A DNA stretch of 64,000 nucleotides, taken from IMG/VR virus record IMGVR_UViG_3300033273_000392, positions 64,001-128,000 of that record; one strand, written 5' to 3'. Below are positions 947 to 62,038 of this stretch, piece after piece. Both the position numbers and the translations under genes were made by a program. The notes beneath the pieces were generated by a model. The model had not been told where the DNA came from. It was given only the letters and a program-made list of their open reading frames with translations, and ran no database searches. Numbering within the stretch: position 1 is the first letter of the stretch; the number at the start of each line of letters is the position of its first letter. This DNA comes from a virus.

Positions 947-3900
947 TCACGAAGATAGCTGTGCAGCCCTAACAGAGCTTTGATTTGAACCTTCAGCTTT
1001 GTACTTTGCGAACACCTCAATGTCAAACGAGAATTGATCGTCAGAAGAATCAAAAATATCTATACCGATTCTTTTTGCGTATGTTAGGTTCGAAACATTT
1101 CTAGACATAATTCCAGCTACTCTTCCAATATCAGATGCCGGAGTATTTCCACTAAAGTCAGTCATTCTATACTGAAATACCACGTCAATTGAAACTGCAT
1201 TATTCTCTCCGTTATTAATAGACTTAACGCCAAACTTATTGTCTCCATTAACAGATAAGTAATCCGTTCTAGTTGGTGAAAGGAATAAGAATGATCCACA
1301 TGACTTACCACCTAATAGATATTGGTCATTAGCGTCAAACGACATTTTAATAGATCTTCCACCTAGTGAACTCTCAGATCTATATGCCATTTGCGTCTTT
1401 CCTCTATTTTCATTAGATTGTAGATTAGCAGTTACAGGCATGCTATAAATCATCTCATTTACTAGAGTTTGAACCTGTCCGCTCATATTAGATACTAAAA
1501 CATTATTAGTTCCTAAGTTTGAAACGTAAGAACTGTAAAGAGTACTCACATCCGGGTGATCTTTGTGTATGAACAAAGAAGTATCATATTCTTCAGCAGA
1601 AATAGCATTAGTAACATCAACAACTAAATCTGAATATGATTCACTTAAAACGTATTCACCTACAAAACCAGCAGGAAGCTGTCCGGCATCCGAAAGATCT
1701 ACAAATCTTTGTCTTCCAAACGTACCAGACCATATATATGATGACGTGCCAGCGTCTCCAGAAACAGTAAGCAAATCTGCGCTTGCTCCACCAAACGTAG
1801 AATATGATAGAGCGTGTTCGTAATCAGAGAAATCACCCGATGCTGCATCAGTATTAACCGCACTGGCATTGTATAAAGAATCTGTGTTAGATACATCCAT
1901 GAATCTAGAGTAAATAAACTGACCTCTTTTCTGAGCAGATTGATATGGAGCCTGTTGATTAAATTCTAAACTATCTTCTGAAGAAATAGTCTGATATTGT
2001 ATAGGCACTAAATCATATTTAGCCTCGGTTGTGTAATACGTGTCGTCTGCTATATTAATAGGAATAATTCCAGATGGATCAGCACCAAACCCATTAGAAT
2101 TTGAAGTAGACTTGTATGTCGGTAAGGTTCTATCTCCTGATATTCTAGCCTTTAACTCTAGTGTAGTTGCATTAGTATTTTCAAGCATTAGCTTAAACGT
2201 TTTAGTTACAATATGTCCCTTTTTAACGCTTAGCTCGGCAACCTCATCAACATAATATCCTGCAAATATTTGGTTATTGGTATTCTTGTTAATAGTGGTA
2301 AACGTACCATCTTCATTGACAAGCTTAACCATAAGCTCACCCTTAACATCATTAATCTTTTCTTGAAGAGATGCAATTTGATTTTGAAGGTCTGCTAGTT
2401 TATCAAACAATGAAATAGGATTTTGCTCAGGAGATAAGAATCCTGATGCAATAGAAGTTGCATTATGCGTATAGTACTTTTCATTAACCGTAAACGAGTC
2501 ATCAACATGAGTGTAAACGCCTCTAGAATCAAGTTCTTCTAGAAGCTCAACCTTGGCTAACTGATTTACATTAGCATCTAAAATAGAGCTTATGTCTACG
2601 GTATCTAGATCTCCGTCTGGGAAAGAAACTCTAATAACGCTTGACCAATCTGACATTTTAGGGTTTCCAGGCCACCCTGCTTCTGAAATAGATTTAACTC
2701 TAATTTCAACCATTTCACCCGACTGAATAGGAATCTCTAGTTGGTTAAAATTAACAACTTGGCCGTCTTCAACTGCAGTATCTGCCCAGAAAAACTTACC
2801 GGTACCTTTATCTCTAAGTCTAGATCTAACCGGTGTTTCTATTTGGTTCCAATTAGAAAATATACCAGTTTTTTCAGATCCGTTATCGTTAAAGTTAATC
2901 TGTGAAACTTGAGCTGCATCTCCAGCAGTAGACAAGTATCTATACTGAATGATGAACTTAATAACGTTTTGTGGAATAGTCTCCGCAACTAGTTTAGCTT
3001 CTGGAATAGACCAGAAACCCCTAATCCTATACTTAGGCGCAACTGCAACCGAGGCAGCATCTGAAGATATAGCAGAAATTTCGTTTACGATAGATGAGTA
3101 CAATTTAACCTCAGCTGCTCTTTCGTTAGAAAGCGAAGCTAATTCGTTTTTATCTCTATCTCTTTCAATTACAGACTTATACTTTTTACTCGCTAATACA
3201 GACCTCTTCTTAGATATAGTATCATCTAATTTCTTAATAGACTCTTGTGCAGATATCTTATCAGAATTCAGCTTCTTAACAGTAGACGTAGTAGAATTCT
3301 GTGTTAGATGTGTATTAATCTGAACAACCTGGAAGTTTTCTTCTAATAGAGTAGGTGCATCTGGAGCAACTCCGTAGACTGAAGGTGGAATGTTATCTTC
3401 CTTTAAAGACCTTATAAATTGTCCAAAGTCAGCTACGTTCTGCTTATAATAATCAGAAAGTCCTATTTTGTTTCCATCTTCATCAGTGTACGTAAGTTCA
3501 TTGCTGTAAATAGAAACACCAGGAGACCAGTTTTCTGCTAAAATCTTAGAATTAGGATCGATCGGCTTTAAGAAAACAACAAATCTTTCGTCAAATCCAA
3601 CATTAATTTCTACAGAAACTGAAGAATCGTTAGACTTGTAAATCGATAATGAATCAACCCCAATTTTTACAGACTCATATCCTTCTATTTTATCAAGTTC
3701 AACTTGTCTAGTTTCAGGATAGATGTTCTTAATCTTATACTTAGTGTTCTTAAGCTGGCTATTAATCATAAGCTCATCGCCAATCTTTAAGAACTCGGTC
3801 TCAGATAAATCGTTATCTGCGTTAGTATAAGTAAGCTTGTCTAATGTATATAGTTTTACGCTTTGTCTTGTGTTTTCACCTTCAACAACTACGTCTTTTT

Positions 3901-50389: not shown

Positions 50390-51337
50390 TTAACTTTGAA
50401 TTTCAAATCTGTCAGGCTCAAGATCTAACGTCTTTTTATCTAGATATTCACTAAAATCAGATAACTCCTTATCAGCATCATCAGATAACTCCCTTCCATA
50501 GAAGTCCTTAAATAGAACTCTATATGCCTGAACAGTTATATCAAATGGTACACCTGGTTGTGAATTACTTTCTATAATGTAAACCTTTCCGTCTTTGTCC
50601 TCCATCACATCAAAGCAAATGTATGGGAGATCTTTGAATATCCTGCAATACTTGGATATGACTTCTTTAAAGGAATCAGGGACGTTCTCTGGATTTCTCT
50701 TTATATACTTAAACGACATCTTTTCCTCTCCCTTACCATCTCCACTTTTAGCTTTGTCGTTCATAGGCTTTCTTTCCATCCATGCAAATATCTCGCCTTT
50801 AAAGCAAACTAGACGATGCTCGGATTTCTTATCAATATATTGTGAATAAACTTCTAGCTTACTATGGTCTGCTGAATCAAATGACTCCTGATCCTTAAAA
50901 ACTTGAATGCCTAGGCCAGAATGTCCGCTAGACGGTTTAGCTATCATTGGAAAACCTATCTTCTCGATAGCTTCATCTTTATCAAAAGAAGTTTTAGGAA
51001 TATTTTCATCGTCACCGACAATCTCATGGAACTTCTTTTTTGACCCCGACATTTCAATAAACTCTGGCTTATTGTACACTTTATCTGGATCGATAAGGCC
51101 ATCATCAATAAGAGCCTTTACTACTTTGGAATTATACGTCAATACAGGAAACTCTGGATTTATCTCCATGTCCTTGTAGTTATCTAAATTAACCTGTACA
51201 AAGAAGTTATCGCCAGCAAAGCCTTTATAGCTCCACCAGCGATGACCACTTTTAGGATCGATAGCAAGATAGATTTTATGTAAATCTCCTTGCCTCTTCT
51301 CAGAAACAAACTGTTCAAAAAGCTTGAATTTACCCAT
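50390..51337 (-). CDS. Leader-bearing ATP-grasp ligase (RimK-like)
   Basis: Start MGKFKLFEQFVSE at 51337 after GATATATA; 'FPMIAKPSSGHSGLGI', 'QYIDKKSEHR', 'FDVM', 'IIESNSQPG'. Confidence 0.8.
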   Translation of the reverse strand: MGKFKLFEQFVSEKRQGDLHKIYLAIDPKSGHRWWSYKGFAGDNFFVQVNLDNYKDMEINPEFPVLTYNSKVVKALIDDGLIDPDKVYNKPEFIEMSGSKKKFHEIVGDDENIPKTSFDKDEAIEKIGFPMIAKPSSGHSGLGIQVFKDQESFDSADHSKLEVYSQYIDKKSEHRLVCFKGEIFAWMERKPMNDKAKSGDGKGEEKMSFKYIKRNPENVPDSFKEVISKYCRIFKDLPYICFDVMEDKDGKVYIIESNSQPGVPFDITVQAYRVLFKDFYGRELSDDADKELSDFSEYLDKKTLDLEPDRFEIQS

Positions 51338-51353
51338 AAGGTATATATCCAAG

Positions 51354-51791
51354 TTAGCTTCCAGGAAAAACTTCGATCGTTCTTTCTTCTTTAACTAAAT
51401 CGCCCCATACTCCAGAGTAGCGAGTACCCTTTACAATATGATTGTCAATCCAATGGTAATGACCGCCTCTTGGCTTATTCATAAGAAGACCATGATACTT
51501 AAAGCCATGTTTATCAAGCCACTCCTCGGTAATATCTCTCACATCCTCAGTACGAGATGTAAAGAATGTGATTATATGTCCCTCGTCGTACCAGCGGTTT
51601 AGTGTTTCTACTGCATCTGGAAATGGAAGAACATGTTTCATTCTTTCAGGCTCCTCATTAGGTACATCATCAGTTACCGTTCCATCGATATCGATTAAAT
51701 AGTTTTTAACACCTTCTGGTAATTGTGGACTTGCCAAATGTCCCTCGTCGTCAAACGCCATATTAAGCGCTAAGTTTATTTCTTTCTTCAT
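51354..51791 (-). CDS. HAD-superfamily phosphatase (Flavobacteria-type family)
   Basis: 'NYLIDIDGTVTDDVPNEEPERM', 'FFTSR', 'KPRGG.YHWIDN'. Confidence 0.8.
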   Translation of the reverse strand: MKKEINLALNMAFDDEGHLASPQLPEGVKNYLIDIDGTVTDDVPNEEPERMKHVLPFPDAVETLNRWYDEGHIITFFTSRTEDVRDITEEWLDKHGFKYHGLLMNKPRGGHYHWIDNHIVKGTRYSGVWGDLVKEERTIEVFPGS

Positions 51792-51797
51792 GTTGAA

Positions 51798-53105
51798 TTA
51801 GTTTTGTTTTCTCATAAAAGACACGCAGATATATCTTTTTCCAGAGTATATCGGACGTGCGCCGTGAAGGTGTGTGACCATTCCAGGATGGAGAGTAGCC
51901 GTTCCTACTCTTTCTGGATTAGATAGTAAGTTGTATTTAGGGAACCATGTTCCGCCGCCATCAAATTCATCATTTAGTTTTACAACCATTGTTATATGGC
52001 TAAAGTCATGATGTAGTGACAAGTGAGACTGCCGGTCTGTCGTGTATCTTGCTAAAAAGTTTTCACTAAACATGGTTCTCCAACCCTTTCCTTCTAGTGT
52101 CCATAGATGAATACAGAGAGGGTATATAACCTCTTTAAGAACTCGACTATAAATGTTTTGAAGGCCTATGTCTTGCAAAAGCACGTCGTTAGTTGGATAA
52201 AACTCATGTCTATCTACAGTCCAATTATCTTTAGCTTCTGCCAATGCAATTGCATCTTTACAGAATTTTTCAGTAAATAGCTGAAACTCAAACACGTTGT
52301 CACCTAGATCATCAATCATAAGATCGTATTCTCCTTTACGCAAAGTCGTATTTACATACTTTTGCATCCAAGAATCCCAATCAGAGTCATCTAGAATTTC
52401 AAAGTACTCATTGGTTTGTGGATTACCGTGCCCGATAGTAGAAGTTTGTGCATTAGACGTTTGCTTTATCCAGTCTACTTTAGTAGCAAATGCCTTTATC
52501 TTCTTTTCAGGAAATAGTTCATTTACATCGTTTCTAGGATGCCGCAAAAAGGTAGCCGGTAAAAACTCATCAACTGGGATTATATTAGATCTAAGATTTA
52601 CGTAATCTAAGAGTTTACTAGCACCGACCTTAGTAAGAACGTATGCATGTGAACAATATGAGTTTAAAGGCATACATATATCTTCAGTAACTGAAAGCTC
52701 TGCTTCTTTGTTCAGCGCGTTTCTACCAAGATATATGAAATCCCATTTAGGTACTTTATCTAAATTTAATTGGCTAATTGCCTTTACTCCTTTAAAGTCC
52801 TCTTCTAGAACTAAAACGACATCTTCATCTCCTTCCGCAATCTTTTTCCATATTTCCATGTGACTTAACGTACATCCTATTTCACCTGGAAGTACTTGCC
52901 TATTCCACCAATCGTTATTAGAACCTTCAAGCTTCCATCCAGAATACGCTGAAAATGGCTCTATATTACTAGGTACATTATTTCCGTCAATTGCTGTAAA
53001 GATCTCGTACCCTGCTCTATTGCTTAGACCGAGTTTTCCCATTCGATCTATAATATCTGCATTAGACTTTTTAAGATTAATTACATAAATCTTTTCTATA
53101 TTCAT
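51798..53105 (-). CDS. GT25 (COLGALT-like) glycosyltransferase fused to a PLOD-like 2OG-Fe(II) lysyl hydroxylase
   Basis: Start MNIEKIYVINL at 53105 (ATGA overlap). GT25: GEIGCTLSH, LVLEED, WDFIYLGR, PVDEFLP. LH: YPTND, NFLARY, LHHD, GGGTWFPKYN, HPG..THLH, GKRYICVSF. Confidence 0.85.
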   Translation of the reverse strand: MNIEKIYVINLKKSNADIIDRMGKLGLSNRAGYEIFTAIDGNNVPSNIEPFSAYSGWKLEGSNNDWWNRQVLPGEIGCTLSHMEIWKKIAEGDEDVVLVLEEDFKGVKAISQLNLDKVPKWDFIYLGRNALNKEAELSVTEDICMPLNSYCSHAYVLTKVGASKLLDYVNLRSNIIPVDEFLPATFLRHPRNDVNELFPEKKIKAFATKVDWIKQTSNAQTSTIGHGNPQTNEYFEILDDSDWDSWMQKYVNTTLRKGEYDLMIDDLGDNVFEFQLFTEKFCKDAIALAEAKDNWTVDRHEFYPTNDVLLQDIGLQNIYSRVLKEVIYPLCIHLWTLEGKGWRTMFSENFLARYTTDRQSHLSLHHDFSHITMVVKLNDEFDGGGTWFPKYNLLSNPERVGTATLHPGMVTHLHGARPIYSGKRYICVSFMRKQN

Positions 53106-54127
53106 AGTGATTCTATAAGTTTTTTCCAATCGTACGACCTCGATGACCACGTTTGATTCTTGGACCAGCTGATACAATCCTTCCGTATCCTTTCTATTAT
53201 GTTAGAACTGCTATGTTCTAATATAGATGTGGCTTCATTATATCTACTAACCTTATAATCTAATATGATTCCGGAATGTATTGTTTCATTTAAAGCCGCA
53301 ATATTAGTAGTAATCGGTATCACGCCCGCGTATTGCATTTCTAAGGCAGTAATACAATACGTTTCTTCATATCCTGTTAAATACATCCAATAGTCTGACT
53401 TAAGCATTGCTGCGTGCAAATCTTCTTGAGAAACACTTCCGTGAATAGTAATTCCATCTTGTCTTACTAAATGAGATAATCTATCCATATCGCCAGAAGC
53501 ATAGTCAGGATAGTATACGTTTAACGTGGCTTCTGGTTTTACTTCTTTTATTCTACTCCAGTTTTCTAATAAGTGTGATAGCCCCCTACTCGGCGCAGAA
53601 CTCCATATAAAACTATCCTTTATCTTTCTAGGTCTTCCATGAAACGAGCTAAGGTCTATCCCATTCCCTATGACTTCTATATTATCAACACCATACTTAT
53701 TTGACCATTGATTTTTATGCCATTCGGTAAGGCATACTATTTTAGAAAGCTTTTGATTATTAAGAAGCGTTTTACTTTGGGGAATCTTCTTTCCGTTCCA
53801 CCAAGCGTGATAGTCTGTATTGTGTGCCCAAAAGATCTTCTTAGCGCCATATTTCTCGAACTCTAATAAGAAGTGGATATAACTAGCACCTATAATTACA
53901 TCAAAGTGATTAAAGTATTGCTTGTGGAGTTTATGCGTGGGAATCCATTCTACTAAACCAAACTTTCCAGGAAGAACATTCCCAGATACGAATACTTCCC
54001 AACCAAACCTGCTTAGCTCTTCAGAAAGCTTTATGCATGCTAGTTCTGTACCTCCAATACCGGAAGTCTTAATAGTATCTGGATTAAATGGCTTCTTCTG
54101 ATAGCCTACATAAATTAGTATGCGCAT
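53102..54127 (-). CDS. GT-B glycosyltransferase (GT4-like)
   Basis: 'GIGGTE', 'FWAHN', 'VIGNGID', 'SSAPSRGL', 'ETYCITALE', 'AALNET'. Confidence 0.85.
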   Translation of the reverse strand: MRILIYVGYQKKPFNPDTIKTSGIGGTELACIKLSEELSRFGWEVFVSGNVLPGKFGLVEWIPTHKLHKQYFNHFDVIIGASYIHFLLEFEKYGAKKIFWAHNTDYHAWWNGKKIPQSKTLLNNQKLSKIVCLTEWHKNQWSNKYGVDNIEVIGNGIDLSSFHGRPRKIKDSFIWSSAPSRGLSHLLENWSRIKEVKPEATLNVYYPDYASGDMDRLSHLVRQDGITIHGSVSQEDLHAAMLKSDYWMYLTGYEETYCITALEMQYAGVIPITTNIAALNETIHSGIILDYKVSRYNEATSILEHSSSNIIERIRKDCISWSKNQTWSSRSYDWKKLIESL

Positions 54128-54154
54128 ATAAACCCGTTTAGGATTTATATATTA

Positions 54155-54364
54155 TCATTCCTGAGACGAGAGATGTTCAACAATAAGACATGGTTTACAA
54201 TAACGACATGATACTTCGGTGCCTATTTCTTCATCATCGGAAGGAAGCTCGTGTGTTTTCCATTCAAAATCAAAAACACCGTTATCGTCATATACGTTAT
54301 ACGCGCCGGCTTCACATTTAGAAGTACCGCTTGACATTGTTTGTTGGCAATTAGTGCAATCCAT
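54155..54364 (-). CDS. Small Cys-rich protein
   Basis: CxxC at the N-terminus and CxxCxxC near the C-terminus. Confidence 0.55.
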   Translation of the reverse strand: MDCTNCQQTMSSGTSKCEAGAYNVYDDNGVFDFEWKTHELPSDDEEIGTEVSCRYCKPCLIVEHLSSQE

Positions 54365-55281
54365 TATTCTTCTCCTGTTACTGTTATACCATCCAGGGCA
54401 AAGTCAGCTCTAAAATATTTTACATCCGACATGACAAAATGAAGATAAACTGAGGATTGACCTGCAAGTGAGTTTAAGTCTACTTCTGCCTTTCTCCAAA
54501 GAGCTGAGTTTGATGTTTGTTGACCTCCTGAAATTCTATTTGATGTAGCTGTCGTAGATCCCGTATCATTCGTCCATCTAGTTATATTCAATCCGCCAGT
54601 AGAAACGTTTTGTAAACCTGAGTTAGTTACGACCTCTGATATTCTACTAGAGTCGGTTGCTGAAGTTGTAGCGGCAATTGCAAAGTCATGTGATGTTGAA
54701 TCTGAAGACGCAGTGGCTAGAGAGTATATATGAAACCAAAAATTTAACTTAAGTGTATTATTACTTAACGCGTTACTAAAATCAAGCTCTGGTGAAATTA
54801 GGGCATGTGCTTGCCCACTACTAGAATAACCGCCACCGGCTGCAGCAGATGACGATTCATAATAGATGTATCGATTCGTGTTACTTTGTGTTCCTGTAGT
54901 AGCACTTACGCCGCCTGATAAACCACCGTTAGGACCAGTCCCTGAAGATCCTGTTGCATTATAGTCAAATCTCCATCCATACGTACCAACTAAGGTAGAA
55001 CTAGATGGGTTTACATTAAATGTTTGTGAGTACGCTCCTGGCAAGCCAAATACCACATGCGAGTCTATACCAACAGTCCATCCAGTAGGCAGCATTTGTG
55101 AAGTATATCCACCGGTCGTCCAATCTTGAGTAAGATAAGTTGTAGCCGTGCCACTGCTACCTGAGCCTCCACCAGACGATCCCCTAGCAAAACCTAAAAG
55201 TTTATTTATGCTAGACCATCCACGCCCAGTTCTTTTTGAGATGTTACTTACGTCTACTCCTGTCTGTTTAGATATTGCCAT
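54364..55281 (-). CDS. Virion-associated protein with MAM-like beta-sandwich domain
   Basis: 'SSGTGP', 'YIYYESS', 'LISP', 'LNFWFHIY', 'WRKAEVDL', 'DFALDGITV' follow the MAM-domain pattern. Confidence 0.55.
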   Translation of the reverse strand: MAISKQTGVDVSNISKRTGRGWSSINKLLGFARGSSGGGSGSSGTATTYLTQDWTTGGYTSQMLPTGWTVGIDSHVVFGLPGAYSQTFNVNPSSSTLVGTYGWRFDYNATGSSGTGPNGGLSGGVSATTGTQSNTNRYIYYESSSAAAGGGYSSSGQAHALISPELDFSNALSNNTLKLNFWFHIYSLATASSDSTSHDFAIAATTSATDSSRISEVVTNSGLQNVSTGGLNITRWTNDTGSTTATSNRISGGQQTSNSALWRKAEVDLNSLAGQSSVYLHFVMSDVKYFRADFALDGITVTGEE

Positions 55282-55292
55282 GTGTAGTTAAT

Positions 55293-58200
55293 TTAGGTTA
55301 ATTCTACCCAATCGTCAGACGGTCTAAAATATAGAAGACTTTCTGAAGGCTTAATTAAATATCCGACAATTCTAACTATTTCTCCGCTTCCATTAGGAGC
55401 TGTTAATGTAAATTGCCCGGCAGTTGTTGAAAGATAAACTATATCGCCAGGCTGTCCTCCAGTAAGGCTGTTTCCTGCTTTTACAACTCCATCTAATACC
55501 ATTTCTTGAGAAGATGTAGCAGTAGTTGCAACCGCTAATAATCCACGAGCATTAGTCTCACTGTCTGCCCGTGCCGTACCCCAAGTTGCGTTTCCGCCCC
55601 CACTCTTAAATTGGTATAATTCCCCAGCAGTTACCGTAAAGTTAGCTGAAAAGTTATGTGCCGTTCTAGTTCCTGGATAAAATTGACCTGATGAAACAGT
55701 TCCTGTTTTATGAGTTTTAACCTTAATATCGTTAGCGTAAAAGTCAGTATTTACTGTCATCCCAAAAGAGTTAACAGTAATATCGGATTCAACAGTAGCA
55801 CTACTTCCACCATTAAAAGTTAATAATCCATCTAGGGTTGATCCTGTGAGGTTTAAAAGACCCTTTTCTCCTTTTTGACCCTTTGATCCAGAGGCACCAG
55901 CGGCACCTTGAGCTCCAGCGGCACCTTGAGCTCCAGCGGCACCTTGTGCTCCAGCTGCACCTTGTGCTCCAGCTGCACCTTGAGCACCTTGAGCACCTTG
56001 TGGTCCAGCAGGACCTTGAGCACCTTGAGGTCCAACTGCACCCTGGTTACCTTGAGCACCCTGTGGTCCAACGTTACCTTGAGCACCTTGAGGTCCAACT
56101 GCACCCTGGTTACCTTGAGCACCTTGTGGTCCAACGTTACCTTGAGCACCTTGAGGTCCAACTGCACCCTGGTTACCTTGAGCACCTTGAGGTCCAACTG
56201 CACCCTGGTTACCTTGAGCACCTTGTGGTCCAACGTTACCTTGAGCACCTTGAGGTCCAACTGCACCCTGGTTACCTTGAGCACCTTGTGGTCCAACGTT
56301 ACCTTGAGCACCTTGAGGTCCAACTGCACCCTGGTTACCTTGAGCACCCTGTGGTCCAACGTTACCTTGAGCACCTTGAGGTCCAACTGCACCCTGGTTA
56401 CCTTGAGCACCTTGTGGTCCAACGGCACCTTGGTTACCTTGAGCACCCTGTGGACCTAAGTCACCTTTAACACCTTGAGCACCTTGAGGTCCGACTGCCC
56501 CTTGGTTACCTTGAGCACCTTGAGGGCCTACATCACCTTTAATACCTTGACCACCTTGTGGACCTAAGTCACCTTTAACACCTTGAGCACCTTGAGGTCC
56601 GACTGCCCCTTGGTTACCTTGAGCACCTTGTGGCCCAACTGCCCCTTGGTTACCTTGAGCACCTTGAGGGCCTACATCACCTTTAATACCTTGACCACCT
56701 TGTGGTCCAACATTTCCTTGAGCACCTTGTGGCCCAACTGCCCCTTGGTTACCTTGAGCACCTTGAGGACCTAGATCACCTTTAATACCTTGATCTCCTT
56801 TTTGACCTTGGTCTCCTTTTTGACCTTGTGGACCCTGTGGACCTACATCACCTTTAATACCTTGGTCTCCTTTTTGCCCCTTGTCTCCTTTTGATCCAGT
56901 CGGGCCTTGAGCTCCTATAAGCTCATCTTCTATCATAAGTAGAAGCGCTGGGGTTCCATTAGAAGAAGATACCATACCGTTAGAGTTAACGAATGAGCCC
57001 TCGCCTTGAAGAAGGATATCTCCGCCATCAGATCTTGTGAAGTTAAGATAGCTTATATTCTTTGTAGTAACATTTACTTCTAAGCCTAATGCCTCTGTAA
57101 ATGTAGCTCCGGTGTAATCTGCAAATGAAGAATCACCGGTAATTACTACATCCTTACCTGCGCCTGAAGTTAACATTAATCCAGGATATTGGCTTTTAAA
57201 GTTAGCTTGATCCCATACAAACGTGCTAGCTACAATGTCTACGTTTCCTGCTGTAAATAGTTGATTTAGATCTTGCGCTATTATATTTGCAGAAAAAGTG
57301 TTATATTGAACCCCGCCGCCTGCATTGTATATTGTATCAGTATTAAAACCTGGCGAGTATGTTATTGAGTTAGTACCGTCTGAAATGCCAACGCTAGGAA
57401 GCTGTGCGGCGGCCTGTCCAACCTGTTTAAGAATAATCATTACATCTCCATTCACTGGTTGAGTAACCTTTCCTGAATAGTTTTCTGCATTAGGTAGATA
57501 TATTGAGGCAGTAACATGGTGGCTGCTAGTAGTTAAGTTAACCTCATTCCTTATTTCTGCAGAAGTTTTAGTTACACCAGCTCCAAGGGGAGCAAATATG
57601 TTAACATCATTAATAACTAAAGAGTCGCCTTCAACCATTCCTACGTTAACAGTGTCAGCCTGTATAACTGTTGGAATTGCATCTTTGAAATGTAAGAACA
57701 TTTCATTGTTTCCAAGAGATGGATTTGTTGTTAGCTCACCGTGTGATGAGGTTGATGCGTAATAAACATCTCCAATAGAACCTGTAAGTCTTTCAGGAGC
57801 CGTAAAGTCATCTATAATTTGATTGAACGGCTTTATGTAGGCTACCGTATCATTATACGTTTTGCTAACTACATAGCCTAACTTATATGCATTTGCTCCT
57901 GGCGAATTTATTGGTATTAGATCCCCACTAGAATCTATAGTTACAACATCTCCTACTTCAATAGTAGTCTGTGGTACATCAAACTTAAGTCTATAACTTT
58001 CGCTCTTCTCCTTTACCTGGAATCTAGCTTGTATCTTATCAATTGAGCCTACGTTAGCCTTAAAAAAGTAGTTGCTATTACCTGCAATTATCGCCTCTCC
58101 AGAATCAGATACCTCAAAGGCACAGATTCTATCACCAGCAGAAAGAACATTTGTTCTATATGTCTTGTGCACATATGCGTCGATATCTTCAACTACGAAT

Positions 58201-58508
58201 GTTATTTCATTCGCATTAGTATCAATCGATATTATCGACGTTATCTTTAGACAGATATTTCCAGTAGCGTCTGCAATCCAATCTCCGGTTTTAATATCAA
58301 GAACAGAGTACGTATATGCTTCTCTAGTAGCTGCGGACCCAGTGGTAACCGGCTTAAATCTAACTGTCATTCTAAACGATATAGGCACATTAAGCCCACT
58401 AGGGCCTAGGCCAGTATCGTCATCGTGTTCGTATCTCGAGACTATTAATATGGAGCCTATCTCTCCTTGTAAAAATAATACAGGTGTATCTGGATTGTAT
58501 ATTGCCAT
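55293..58508 (-). CDS. Collagen-like fibre protein 1
   Basis: About 117 uninterrupted G-X-Y triplets between globular domains. Confidence 0.85.
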   Translation of the reverse strand: MAIYNPDTPVLFLQGEIGSILIVSRYEHDDDTGLGPSGLNVPISFRMTVRFKPVTTGSAATREAYTYSVLDIKTGDWIADATGNICLKITSIISIDTNANEITFVVEDIDAYVHKTYRTNVLSAGDRICAFEVSDSGEAIIAGNSNYFFKANVGSIDKIQARFQVKEKSESYRLKFDVPQTTIEVGDVVTIDSSGDLIPINSPGANAYKLGYVVSKTYNDTVAYIKPFNQIIDDFTAPERLTGSIGDVYYASTSSHGELTTNPSLGNNEMFLHFKDAIPTVIQADTVNVGMVEGDSLVINDVNIFAPLGAGVTKTSAEIRNEVNLTTSSHHVTASIYLPNAENYSGKVTQPVNGDVMIILKQVGQAAAQLPSVGISDGTNSITYSPGFNTDTIYNAGGGVQYNTFSANIIAQDLNQLFTAGNVDIVASTFVWDQANFKSQYPGLMLTSGAGKDVVITGDSSFADYTGATFTEALGLEVNVTTKNISYLNFTRSDGGDILLQGEGSFVNSNGMVSSSNGTPALLLMIEDELIGAQGPTGSKGDKGQKGDQGIKGDVGPQGPQGQKGDQGQKGDQGIKGDLGPQGAQGNQGAVGPQGAQGNVGPQGGQGIKGDVGPQGAQGNQGAVGPQGAQGNQGAVGPQGAQGVKGDLGPQGGQGIKGDVGPQGAQGNQGAVGPQGAQGVKGDLGPQGAQGNQGAVGPQGAQGNQGAVGPQGAQGNVGPQGAQGNQGAVGPQGAQGNVGPQGAQGNQGAVGPQGAQGNVGPQGAQGNQGAVGPQGAQGNQGAVGPQGAQGNVGPQGAQGNQGAVGPQGAQGNVGPQGAQGNQGAVGPQGAQGPAGPQGAQGAQGAAGAQGAAGAQGAAGAQGAAGAQGAAGASGSKGQKGEKGLLNLTGSTLDGLLTFNGGSSATVESDITVNSFGMTVNTDFYANDIKVKTHKTGTVSSGQFYPGTRTAHNFSANFTVTAGELYQFKSGGGNATWGTARADSETNARGLLAVATTATSSQEMVLDGVVKAGNSLTGGQPGDIVYLSTTAGQFTLTAPNGSGEIVRIVGYLIKPSESLLYFRPSDDWVELT
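55863..56915. repeat. Collagen-coding tandem repeat (9/27/36/63-bp periodicities)
   Basis: Recurrent units encoding [27 protein letters not shown] and GxKGD. Confidence 0.9.
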
Positions 58509-58523
58509 CTATGTTAGTTGTCA

Positions 58524-61500
58524 TTAGAACGTGAATATGAGATACACGTGGGGGTCGACTCTATTTTGAAGAGGTGCTGAGTAGCTGTTTCCATACTTTA
58601 CAACACTTTGTTCAACTGGAATTGTCATGTCATATGAAGAGAAGTCAGCACTAAAGTTAGTTCCAGACCATTGTCCAGCAAGACCAGATCCACCTTCACT
58701 TGTAGACTGGTAGGTAAACGCTGTTTTAACAGTGTTGTATGTTATTTGCGCAATATCGTCATTATCAAAATGAGTTACCTTATATGTCATAGTCTTTGGA
58801 TCTAACGCATATGCAAATATAGAAATAGGTGGTCTAGATCTGTTAAATGATACGGTTACGTAGTGGCCAGAATTACCAGTACCTACTGTTTCAGAAACGA
58901 CAGTTGCTGTACCGGCTCCAGGGTTTACATATCCAGTAGCTGCAACAAAGGTGGAGTTACCGCTTATAAGTGCCTCGTTCTGATCATACTCAAGTCTTAG
59001 TAGGAACTGTTCAGACCCACCAACTCCAGTTGGGCCTAGTTCACCTTTTTGTCCCTTGACGCCTTGAGTACCCTGAGTACCTTGGTCACCCTGCGGACCG
59101 GTTACACCGATCTCACCTTTAGTTCCAGCTGCACCCTGAGATCCAACTGGTCCTTGTGGTCCTACTTCACCTTTATCACCGGTTGCTCCAACTTGACCTT
59201 GTAGCCCAACTGGACCTTGTGGTCCGATTGCACCCTGCGGTCCAACTACCGTAGAATCTGCTCCTTTATCACCCTTGTCTCCCTTGTCACCCTGTGGACC
59301 TTCAATAGAAATCGCACCTAGTGTTGTAATAACATAAGAGTAATCAGCGGTTCCTTCAGTATAAAACTTGATAGCATGGGACTGATTGTCAGGGTTATTT
59401 GCGTAGATCCTTACAATCATTCTGTCACCTGTATTCAAAGTGGTGTGTGGGAACTCAAAATCAAGATCCATTTCAACTGGAGTGGTGTTATTAGTGTCCC
59501 ATCCAATAGACTCTACTTCAGTAGTACCTAAACTATTAATTGTGCTTAAAGTTGAATCTGCGCGTAAAAGTTCTACATAAATCTGAACATTATCTGCCTC
59601 ATTAAGCTTAGTAAAGTGCAAGTGGAATCTCTGAATTCCGGCAGGTATAAAGTCATATTGATCTAGCTCTCCTGCATCTGTAATAAATTGTGCAACAAGA
59701 ACCTGACTTGAATTATTATTAATTGTTACATTTGTAATTTGCTGTGACGCCTGCGTTTGTGCATCATCTACTTCATAATACCCTGTTGGGCTTTGAGCAA
59801 CTGACGTATTTAAGTAGTAGATTCTACCTGTAGTTATACCGTCTTTACCAGTAGCTCCTTGTGGTCCAACATCTCCCTTTTCACCTTTATCTCCAGTAAT
59901 ACCCTGTAGTCCTTGTAAACCGACAGAACCCTGTGGGCCTTGTGGACCTGGAATTGTAGAAGGCTCTCCTTTATCGCCAACAAGTCCTTGTAAGCCGATA
60001 GGACCTTGTGGACCTGGAATTGTAGATGGCGCGCCAGTAGCTCCAACATTACCCTGTGCACCTTGAGGTCCAACATCTCCCTTATCTCCTTTAGGACCTG
60101 GAACTGATGAATCAAATCCTTTATTACCCTTTTGTCCAACTTGACCCTGTGCACCAACTTCACCTTTTTGACCCTTTTGTCCAACTAGACCTGCACCTCC
60201 CTGGGCTCCCACTTCACCTTTTTGACCCTGTGCTCCATGTGAACCAGTAGGACCTTGTGGTCCAAGTGGACCTTGTGGGCCTATATCTCCCTTAATACCC
60301 TGAGCACCTTGTAAACCAACAGAACCCTGTGGTCCAGTTGGACCCTGCGGTCCAGTTGGTCCGCCTGATCCTCTTAAAGAAGATGTTGTATAATCGCTTA
60401 TAGTTATAGTTCCACCTTCAGTAGAATGATCGGCCGGCGGGTCAACAGTAGAATCGCAGTAGTAGTATAGTGTTGCAGGTGCGCTTAACGGTACTACAAA
60501 TTCGATATAACCTCCAATACCGCCATATGCTCCGTTTAAGGTTACTCCATCAGTATATTCAGTTCCTCCATTATGTGTACCCCCATCAGTAGTTGAAAAC
60601 TTAAAGAAGTGATCGCGCATCGATGAATGATTTACATCAAATCTATACACTTGACCTCTAAAAAATTCTAAAGACGTATTTTCACCATTACCAACATAAA
60701 AAACAGAATCCCCTGAGCCGTTTGTACCTGTAGTGACCTTAAATCTACCTGAGTATGTGGGATCTCCAGTGCTACCTTGTGGTCCGGTCTCACCGGTACC
60801 GCCAGTTTCACCCGGCTCACCCTTCTGACCTTTACTCCCTCCAGGGCCCTGAGGACCTGTATCGCCAGTAACACTTAATCCTATATCACCCTTCTCTCCC
60901 TTTTCTCCAGTAGCCCCACTAGGACCTTGCGCTCCTTCTTGTCCAGTATCTCCCTTTAATCCTTGTAGACCTACGCCAATATCACCCTTCTCTCCGGTAG
61001 GACCCTGAGGACCTGCTACTGTAGAGTCGGCGCCCGTTGGACCTTGAGCGCCTTGGGCACCTGTTTCACCCTTCTCTCCTCTTTCTCCTTTTAGTCCCTG
61101 GGGCCCTTGTGGTCCTTCATCCCCTTTAAGCCCAGCTGAAGTATATGCGTCTAAAGAAAGAGATATGTTTTGATTTAGTGAAAACTTAGTAAGAACATTA
61201 TCAGAAGAAGAGTGAGAGCGATATGTTACTGTTATGTCGTAAACAACCGGAGTTTGACTGCCCGACATTACGTGATTAGTCATTTGCCATGAAACTATAT
61301 CGTATATGTAGTATTCATACGGTCTATCAACATCAGTAACTACCATGTAAACTCCTGAGCTCTGGCTTCCAGTCTGGAAGAGCTCGGTTAACACGTAATC
61401 CAAATACTCGTTTGTATATCCTCTAACGTCTTTAAAGTGAACCTGTATAGAAGTTACATTCCTAGGATCTGAAGATTCAAAACTTATTCTTCCAGGTACT

Positions 61501-62003
61501 GGGAAATCCCCATTAGTAGCACCAACTGCATATAAAGATGCTGGGGTTATGAATCTATCGTCTACTAATCCAAAAGATTTAGAAGATGCGCTAGGGGTAT
61601 ACAAAGAAACCACTGCTATAATTAGCTTTGGCATTGTCGTAGTTATAGTGCCGACAATATATCTTGATCTGACAAGTTCTACTTCTGCATGAACTGATCC
61701 TATTCTAAGATTCGAAGTGTCATTTTCGTCTAAAATAAACTGTATTAGTCCTTCTTCGCCATTTGCAGAGTTACCTATGAAAAGACTATCATTTCCAGGA
61801 GTACTAGCTTTAGAATATGTTTTAAAGTGAATGCCTTGGTCATCGTATAGGCGAACTATAACGTTATCGTAGTTAGATAAATCTACTTGATCGTTAATTA
61901 CGTCACGGTACATTACTATACCGAAAGTAGTCTGTGATCCCTGGCTAATATTCTGTACCTGAGATATGTATGCAAAGAAGTTTTCTTTTATAACGTATGG
62001 CAT
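58524..62003 (-). CDS. Collagen-like fibre protein 2 (three interrupted collagen segments)
   Basis: G-X-Y runs at about 60770-61135, 59835-60372 and 59020-59300, separated by globular domains; GATATATA at 62031-62038. Confidence 0.85.
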
Positions 62004-62030
62004 TCCCCAAATTGTCTTTTTAGTTCTGTT

Positions 62031-62038
62031 TATATATC
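62031..62038 (-). promoter_or_regulatory. Late-type promoter motif GATATATA heading the collagen operon
   Basis: Intergenic, 27 nt upstream of ATG 62003. Confidence 0.6.

Follow-up and report, generated by a model that had tools for sequence, protein, structure and literature searches.

We analysed a 64,000-nucleotide stretch of viral DNA (hereafter the window), which comprises bases 64001-128000 of a 149-kb IMG/VR virus record (IMGVR_UViG_3300033273_000392; CheckV completeness 43%) and has nearly all of its genes on the minus strand. Our subject is a run of these genes that encodes two long collagen-like proteins and, next to them, a GT4 glycosyltransferase and a fusion protein in which a GT25 glycosyltransferase domain precedes a lysyl hydroxylase (LH) domain (GT25-LH). 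The evidence presented here makes it likely that this run is an operon for virion fibres that includes a module for modifying their collagen lysines.

Organization of the gene run

As listed in Table 1, the genes for collagen 2, collagen 1, a MAM-like protein, a Cys-rich protein, GT4, GT25-LH and HAD follow one another on a single strand, and their coordinates match the order that an original prediction, made from the sequence alone, had proposed. That prediction had also described the run as tightly packed, with the two enzyme genes coupled by an overlap, and both features were confirmed. The gaps measure 15 nucleotides (nt) between the two collagen genes, 11 nt between collagen 1 and the gene for the MAM-like protein of 305 amino acids (aa), and 27 nt, the widest in the run, between the Cys-rich gene and GT4; the 305-aa gene and the Cys-rich gene overlap by 1 nt (TAATG), GT4 and GT25-LH share an ATGA overlap, and 6 nt separate GT25-LH from HAD. 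The enzymes and their putative substrates therefore adjoin each other in one operon-like run. The Pfam assignments of the collagens, GT4, GT25-LH and HAD all score above the curated cut-offs.

Table 1. Genes and sequence elements of the collagen and enzyme run, in window coordinates
Feature	Position	Strand	Characteristics
Collagen 2	58524-62003	-	1159 aa; PF01391 E 5e-45
Collagen 1	55293-58508	-	1071 aa; PF01391 E 1.6e-51
MAM-like protein	54364-55281	-	305 aa; predicted beta jelly roll
Cys-rich protein	54155-54364	-	69 aa; six Cys
GT4 glycosyltransferase	53102-54127	-	341 aa; PF13439 39.3 bits (cut-off 28.5), PF00534 29.2 bits (cut-off 26.4)
GT25-LH fusion	51798-53105	-	435 aa from ATG; PF01755 62.1 bits (cut-off 24)
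HAD	51354-51791	-	145 aa; LNS2/HAD 34.4 bits
ATP-grasp protein	50390-51352	-	next after HAD; protein starts MGKFKLFEQFVSE
TATATAAA octamer	62029-62036	-	26 nt ahead of collagen 2; candidate element of a late-type promoter
Second TATATAAA octamer	54144-54151	-	17 nt before GT4

The fibre proteins and their small neighbours

Collagen 1 has 118 G-X-Y triplets in a single unbroken run (residues 532-885) flanked by N- and C-terminal globular parts, and in collagen 2 some 126 triplets are spread over ten runs split by globular domains. Lysine occupies the Y position 14 times and the X position never in collagen 1, and Y 27 times and X once in collagen 2, where 21 of the 27 Y sites read G-x-K-G-[D/E]; for the two proteins pooled this gives 41 lysines in Y and one in X, with 32 of the Y sites in the same context. 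The proline of both collagens stands in X and not in Y (28 times in X and never in Y in collagen 1). Pfam and PHROG searches with the non-collagen parts of both fibres found a single tail-fibre-like domain: a globular domain of collagen 2 (residues 416-544), used as a query free of collagen repeats, matches the tail-fibre PHROGs 693 and 677. Because of this match the two collagens are likely, but not certain, to be tail fibres. Within collagen 1, other frames contain open reading frames (ORFs) of 183-197 aa (55853-56470, both strands; for example 55853-56446), which were rejected as genes, being by-products of a long, near-perfect GAQGNQGAVGPQ-type repeat.

The 305-aa protein had been labelled MAM-like. 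It has no Pfam match of its own, even at E 10, but its homologues at 36-55% identity carry PF00629 (MAM), and a profile search recovered an SR-C-like MAM protein at E 5e-4. Its AlphaFold2 model (pLDDT 70) resembles the gingipain cleaved-adhesin domain and the MAM domains of enteropeptidase, meprin and LAST-MAM, with modest TM scores. As modelled, the protein thus resembles a beta jelly roll of the MAM or cleaved-adhesin kind, and an adhesin or a fibre tip component would be a plausible role for it. The Cys-rich protein, with cysteines at positions 3, 6, 17, 53, 56 and 59 (CxxC...C...CxxCxxC), matched no family in the Pfam or PHROG searches.

GT25-LH resembles collagen lysine-modifying enzymes

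The GT25-LH protein is laid out as a transferase resembling the GT2 domain of COLGALT1 (residues 1-210), a linker, and a lysyl hydroxylase of the PLOD/L230 kind (residues 240-435). When residues 244-431 were searched against the sequences of the PDB, they matched mimivirus L230 (6ax6) at E 9.5e-23 and human LH3 (6fxk) at E 5.8e-21, and prolyl hydroxylases at about 2e-3. Identity between the LH domain and L230 is 30% over the aligned structure, and the PLOD-family motifs on the substrate side are kept. The other half, residues 2-209, matches residues 312-525 of human COLGALT1 (9evj) at E 4e-18 to 1e-17 and mimivirus R655 weakly, the bacterial GT25 beta-1,4-galactosyltransferases reaching merely E 0.2 by sequence. 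Since the match is confined to those COLGALT1 residues and only one glycosyltransferase (GT) domain precedes the LH domain, the two-domain COLGALT layout is absent, and the GT25 half is a homologue of the COLGALT1 catalytic domain, not a full orthologue. PF25342, the PLOD-type GT, was not detected in this protein by the Pfam scan.

The AlphaFold2 model, for which 19 homologues were used (pLDDT 78.5), has two domains with a disordered linker between them. In Foldseek searches with this model LH3, COLGALT1, L230 and R655 rank first, and the comparison with 6ax6_B, a solved LH domain with a double-stranded beta-helix fold, gives E 2e-14, a TM score of 0.77 (normalised to the target) and a root-mean-square deviation of 4.0 over 208 columns. 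The iron triad of the LH domain (HHD at 365-367 with H412/H414) and the 2-oxoglutarate arginine R424 align with those of L230 and LH3 and are invariant in the 19 homologues. In the alignment with COLGALT1 the GT25 sequence LEEDF falls opposite FEDDL; all the homologues keep E101 and D103, with E or D as the middle residue. The solved structure of COLGALT1 identifies EDD as the unusual Mn-binding motif of its catalytic GT2 domain (PMC12003778). The identity that had been predicted for GT25-LH thus held up by sequence as well as by fold, and the alignments and the model support the view that the two domains are specifically related to genuine collagen lysine-modifying enzymes and have kept their catalytic residues intact. 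A TTG start at 53177, listed by the ORF program, is not used by the homologues. The cassette enzymes have no N-terminal extension in the alignments, from which we deduce that they should act in the host cytoplasm.

The partner enzyme, GT4, has an EX7E motif (ETYCITALE, residues 255-263) in addition to its two Pfam matches, and by sequence it is assigned to a GT-B, retaining-type family.

The enzymes recur downstream of collagen genes

Marine and estuarine metagenomes contain full-length relatives of GT25-LH that fall into at least 360 clusters when grouped at 90% identity. An alignment of the GT25-LH family served to retrieve 80 viral loci, which we analysed by script. A GT4 homologue lies immediately upstream of the LH gene in 77 of the 79 viral loci with enough flank, and is the most constant partner of LH. 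Among the 35 loci having at least 8 kb of upstream flank, 23 have collagen ORFs upstream on the strand of the enzymes, and none of the 59 having at least 8 kb of downstream flank has them downstream; in four contigs without collagen inside 10 kb, a co-oriented collagen lies 12-16 kb upstream. All LH clusters with enough flank have an upstream collagen, either within 10 kb or at 12-16 kb. Co-occurrence and synteny in phages agree with the original prediction, and phage enzymes without collagens were not the pattern found. One related locus, L015, has an extra stand-alone GT25 gene of 321 aa between the collagens and GT4, on the opposite strand (L015:7144-8109, minus).

The module also occurs in fused forms. 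In one clade GT4, GT25 and LH form a single ORF, of 760 aa, and in another GT4 is fused directly to LH in an ORF of 561 aa; the sizes of the two kinds of fusion range over 760-847 and 529-561 aa. All four genomes of GT4-LH phages that are 90-100% complete carry a separate GT25 gene. A search with the LH domain among 1.84 billion representatives recovered 557 relatives at E 1e-10 or better; LH sits C-terminally in nearly every protein among the matches listed, and the architectures sampled include GT25+PLOD-GT+LH, GT4+GT25+LH, GT4+LH and PLOD-GT...LH. Cultured phages are among the carriers. The cyanomyoviruses S-PRM1, S-CAM9 and S-8S55 encode a protein of 614-621 aa that combines GT25, a PLOD GT domain (PF25342, E 1e-46 to 1e-48) and LH; its gene adjoins those of two oxygenases resembling prolyl 4-hydroxylase (P4H-like) and comes three genes after that of a 'tail fiber protein' with collagen repeats. 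In the roseopodophage CRP-6 the same three domains make up gp58, which is encoded two genes downstream of the collagen tail fibre gp60, a protein of 99 triplets with lysine in Y 26 times. These observations support a link between the enzymes and collagens that reappears in phage lineages unrelated to one another, as well as in fusion proteins.

In 45 of 87 loci the module comes with a P4H-like oxygenase (PF13640), whose gene stands directly before GT4 or just after LH; one example is a protein of 203 aa at L011:8312-8923. No such gene was found on the 149-kb contig that holds the window. Proline in Y was looked for in the collagens near the P4H-like gene and was not seen; proline stays in X.

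A closely related locus lacks the enzyme module

The closest backbone relative of the window, L099 (IMGVR_UViG_3300017913_001781, 1552-3220), keeps the collagen, MAM-like, Cys-rich and HAD genes and is without GT4 and GT25-LH. Its MAM-like and Cys-rich proteins are 74% and 78% identical to those of the window, and a GC-rich, terminator-like hairpin with a T-run (about 2722-2748) occupies the place where the two enzyme genes would sit. L099 and the window thus show a clean presence/absence polymorphism of a two-gene enzyme module. The MAM-like and Cys-rich genes, which L099 retains without the enzymes, go with the fibre genes and not with the enzyme genes. HAD and the ATP-grasp protein were likewise rejected as members of the cassette, since both are kept in L099 and HAD is missing from the enzyme-bearing loci L018, L019 and L022; they are backbone genes. 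The HAD phosphatase that had been placed at the end of the run does directly follow GT25-LH, but it lies outside the module.

The presence of the module goes with the lysine content of the collagens. L099 has lysine in Y in 3 of 40 collagen triplets, and the loci L121-123, also without the enzymes, have about 5% lysine in Y. For a broader comparison, dereplication of the LH loci at 80% identity gave 22 clusters, 18 of which have a collagen in the stretch covered. The pooled fraction of Y positions occupied by lysine has a median of 0.25 in these 18 clusters against 0.03 in 90 viral collagen loci without LH (one-sided Mann-Whitney p ~1e-6, with loci that are not phylogenetically independent), the control collagens being a biased sample, drawn by a GPQ DNA pattern from many habitats, and some of the control loci perhaps having an LH gene outside the stretch covered. 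Just 3 of 117 pattern-sampled collagen loci carry LH. When the exonuclease gene was used as an anchor for module-less relatives it returned 25 loci only, most of them with the module, so that the negative set within the clade is small.

Putative promoter and source of the window

The original prediction had placed a late-motif promoter at the head of the run. The octamer TATATAAA does sit before collagen 2, but it is a variant of the T4 late consensus TATAAATA, which itself is not matched before collagen 2 or GT4. The octamer also precedes two other minus-strand ORF starts, and its nine copies in the window compare with 8.2 expected by chance, so it is not enriched. The call of a late promoter is thus a guess.

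The helicase encoded in the window has its nearest relatives in an uncultured phage of 462 kb and in Tenacibaculum phage PTm1 (224 kb). Because of these relatives, and of a baseplate wedge gene in the window, the source is a large, probably jumbo, marine myophage. A pelagimyophage identity, prompted by the neighbouring HSP20, DnaJ, S21 and PhoH genes, was rejected in view of the same helicase relatives. A megablast search of 24 kb against cultured phages gave zero matches. The same cassette, at 59% identity, is found on a 24-kb contig (PAUJ01000013.1; L243) that was binned with a Flavobacteriaceae metagenome-assembled genome, in the order collagen, P4H-like region, GT4, GT25-LH, HAD, ATP-grasp and exonuclease. 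This contig is probably phage DNA, and it gives a weak hint of a flavobacterial host.

Discussion

As far as the sequence data reach, the original prediction of a phage whose collagen fibres are hydroxylated and glycosylated at lysine is supported. Late in infection, two long collagen-like fibre proteins, probably tail fibres, would be made in the host cytoplasm. Before the triple helix winds, the C-terminal 2-oxoglutarate/Fe(II) dioxygenase domain of GT25-LH would hydroxylate the Y-position lysines of G-X-K-G, that is, lysine in the X-Lys-Gly context of collagen, and the N-terminal GT25 domain would add the first sugar from a UDP-sugar onto the new hydroxyl. The translationally coupled GT4 would most likely extend or diversify the glycan, and may add the second sugar. 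The outcome would be fibres bearing glycosylated hydroxylysine, which would probably hold more water and be more stable, or be protected against proteases, or differ in their adhesion. We infer the substrate, the sugars, the order of the transferases, the timing and the benefit to the phage; for the order and the identity of the sugars we rely on the homology to COLGALT1 and on the retaining family of GT4.

Together with the sampling biases of the lysine comparison, several points weigh against this scheme. Lysines in K-G-D/E contexts of collagen also stabilise the triple helix by salt bridges, and lysine-rich collagens therefore need not be LH substrates. The L021 group and L208 have LH and only lysine-poor collagens in the stretch fetched. 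GT25 enzymes act in lipooligosaccharide synthesis too. Nor is the LH family tied to collagen everywhere: stand-alone LH proteins, 47-51% identical to the phage LH half, occur in Thiotrichaceae chromosomes (L244-L252; for example a protein of 255 aa in Thiothrix fructosivorans, L252:9833-10600) with no collagen within 10 kb, and in a 607-aa protein (P0191) an N-terminal Peptidase_C39 domain, of the bacteriocin-processing kind, is fused to an LH-like domain, an architecture which suggests that some LH relatives may hydroxylate ribosomal peptides and not collagen. Two of three Thiotrichaceae have collagens elsewhere in the genome, and the result from this family neither supports nor refutes the phage reading.

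Another explanation is that the enzymes are host-directed auxiliary genes which alter the lipopolysaccharide (LPS) or surface of the host, for example to exclude other phages, and are merely located in a hypervariable tail-fibre region. Annotation leans this way, since JGI labels the homologues 'GR25 family glycosyltransferase involved in LPS biosynthesis' and PHROGs class both enzymes as moron/auxiliary; the glycosyltransferases in the tail-fibre hypervariable region of pelagimyophages have been taken as O-chain modifiers (PMC7029224), and the enzyme pair acts as an insertion/deletion unit. We nevertheless consider this quite unlikely. Among characterised proteins, both domains are closest to collagen enzymes and not to LPS enzymes, as the marginal score of the bacterial GT25 galactosyltransferases illustrates, and a role at the host surface leaves unexplained why a lysyl hydroxylase is fused to the transferases, why the link to collagen is strictly upstream and on the same strand, and why lysine is enriched in Y.

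It is also conceivable, if unlikely, that virion proteins are modified in some other way, with the hydroxylase acting on another residue or protein (the MAM-like tip or non-collagen fibre domains) or the transferases acting on Ser/Thr. Phage transferases glycosylate capsid and tail proteins elsewhere, according to the citation of Freeman et al. 2023 in PMC12619734, the BclA collagen is glycosylated without hydroxylysine (PMC8968730), several neighbouring collagens are lysine-poor and rich in Ser, Asn or Thr in Y, and the GT4-LH fusions have no GT25 attached. The resemblance of LH to L230 and its conserved PLOD substrate-side motifs speak for lysine, however, most LH-bearing loci have no MAM-like gene, and the enrichment of lysine in Y is what an X-Lys-Gly hydroxylase predicts. 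Chance adjacency in a recombination-prone region, with the enzymes being inactive relics or having a small-molecule substrate, we regard as very improbable. The region is indeed hypervariable, and secondary-metabolite roles have been proposed for clustered cyanophage dioxygenases (Iyer et al. 2010, PMC2938197), but the catalytic residues are invariant across the many clusters of full-length homologues, the association is kept across four phage lineages and repeated fusions, and collagen never lies downstream of the enzymes in the loci with enough flank.

Modification of collagen lysine in the phage, as we propose it, is closest to the system of Acanthamoeba polyphaga mimivirus, which comprises L230 (a collagen lysyl hydroxylase that is also a hydroxylysyl glucosyltransferase), R699, R655 and L593 together with mimiviral collagens (PMC9546862). 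Both viruses have collagens plus enzymes, putative in the phage, for lysine hydroxylation and glycosylation; in L230, the best sequence match of the phage LH half, the LH domain is likewise C-terminal in a glycosyltransferase fusion, and R655 is also a GT25-like protein (PMC9546862). The phage differs in being tailed and having a bacterial host, in the fusion of LH to a COLGALT-like GT25 instead of the PLOD-type GT of L230, in its constant GT4 partner, and in the placing of the enzymes in one operon-like run with their putative substrates. With the animal enzymes LH3/PLOD3 and COLGALT1/GLT25D1 it shares the two catalytic families and the same metal and 2-oxoglutarate residues, and, as in the animal pathway from lysine through hydroxylysine (Hyl) and galactosyl-hydroxylysine (Gal-Hyl) to glucosyl-galactosyl-hydroxylysine (Glc-Gal-Hyl), the expected site is the Y-position lysine of G-X-Y (PMC12003778, PMC13382579). 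Unlike the animal enzymes, the phage unites both families in one 435-aa chain, which is without the non-catalytic GT1 domain found in COLGALT1, without LH3's GT and accessory domains, and without any signal peptide or endoplasmic reticulum context. Its second transferase is a GT-B GT4, whereas that of animals is the GT-A domain of PLOD; the cyanophage and CRP-6 versions do carry a PLOD-GT domain.

Among prokaryotic systems, operons of bacterial 2-oxoglutarate dioxygenases with collagen-like or tail-collar proteins, for which hydroxylation and sulfation were predicted (Iyer, Abhiman, de Souza and Aravind 2010, PMC2938197), resemble the present run in having a collagen-like protein beside dioxygenases that is predicted to be hydroxylated and then further modified; that paper describes no PLOD-type LH or hydroxylysine glycosylation in phages. 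The glycosylation of mycobacteriophage virions (Freeman et al. 2023) and of Bacillus BclA is similar in that phage- or cell-encoded transferases decorate surface structural proteins, and differs in that attachment is not through hydroxylysine and involves no lysyl hydroxylase. A 2022 review finds phage and prokaryotic collagens mostly without such modifications (PMC8968730), in agreement with the original premise that they are generally thought to be unmodified at lysine. In full-text literature searches we found no PLOD-type hydroxylase or hydroxylysine glycosylation described in a bacteriophage, publication elsewhere being possible, and the papers describing CRP-6 and pelagimyophages make no mention of such an enzyme-collagen system. 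Our results suggest that a phage decorates its own fibres with chemistry that we found described only for animals and giant viruses.

A wider proposal can be put forward tentatively. A portable cassette, consisting of LH, GT25, GT4 or a PLOD-type GT, and often a P4H-like oxygenase, may travel along with lysine-rich collagen tail fibres between marine phages of unrelated lineages, among them jumbo myophages, cyanomyoviruses and a roseophage podovirus, and equip their fibres with glycosylated hydroxylysine, in which case the 'animal' PLOD/COLGALT chemistry would be part of a far older prokaryotic and viral pool of enzymes that decorate collagen. Because the cultured phages S-PRM1, S-CAM9, S-8S55 and CRP-6 carry related enzymes, the proposal is directly testable.

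Glycosylation of collagen hydroxylysine is regarded as a distinguishing feature of animals, mimivirus being the single exception among viruses, and the finding bears on the origin of the animal collagen-modifying enzymes. If the proposal is true, it would also provide compact enzymes suited to the bacterial cytoplasm for hydroxylated and glycosylated recombinant collagen. Many auxiliary genes of marine phages now annotated as 'LPS glycosyltransferase' and '2OG oxygenase' would be reassigned to virion maturation, and marine phages would have a new kind of virion decoration that may affect host recognition, fibre stability and the ecology of phages in the ocean.

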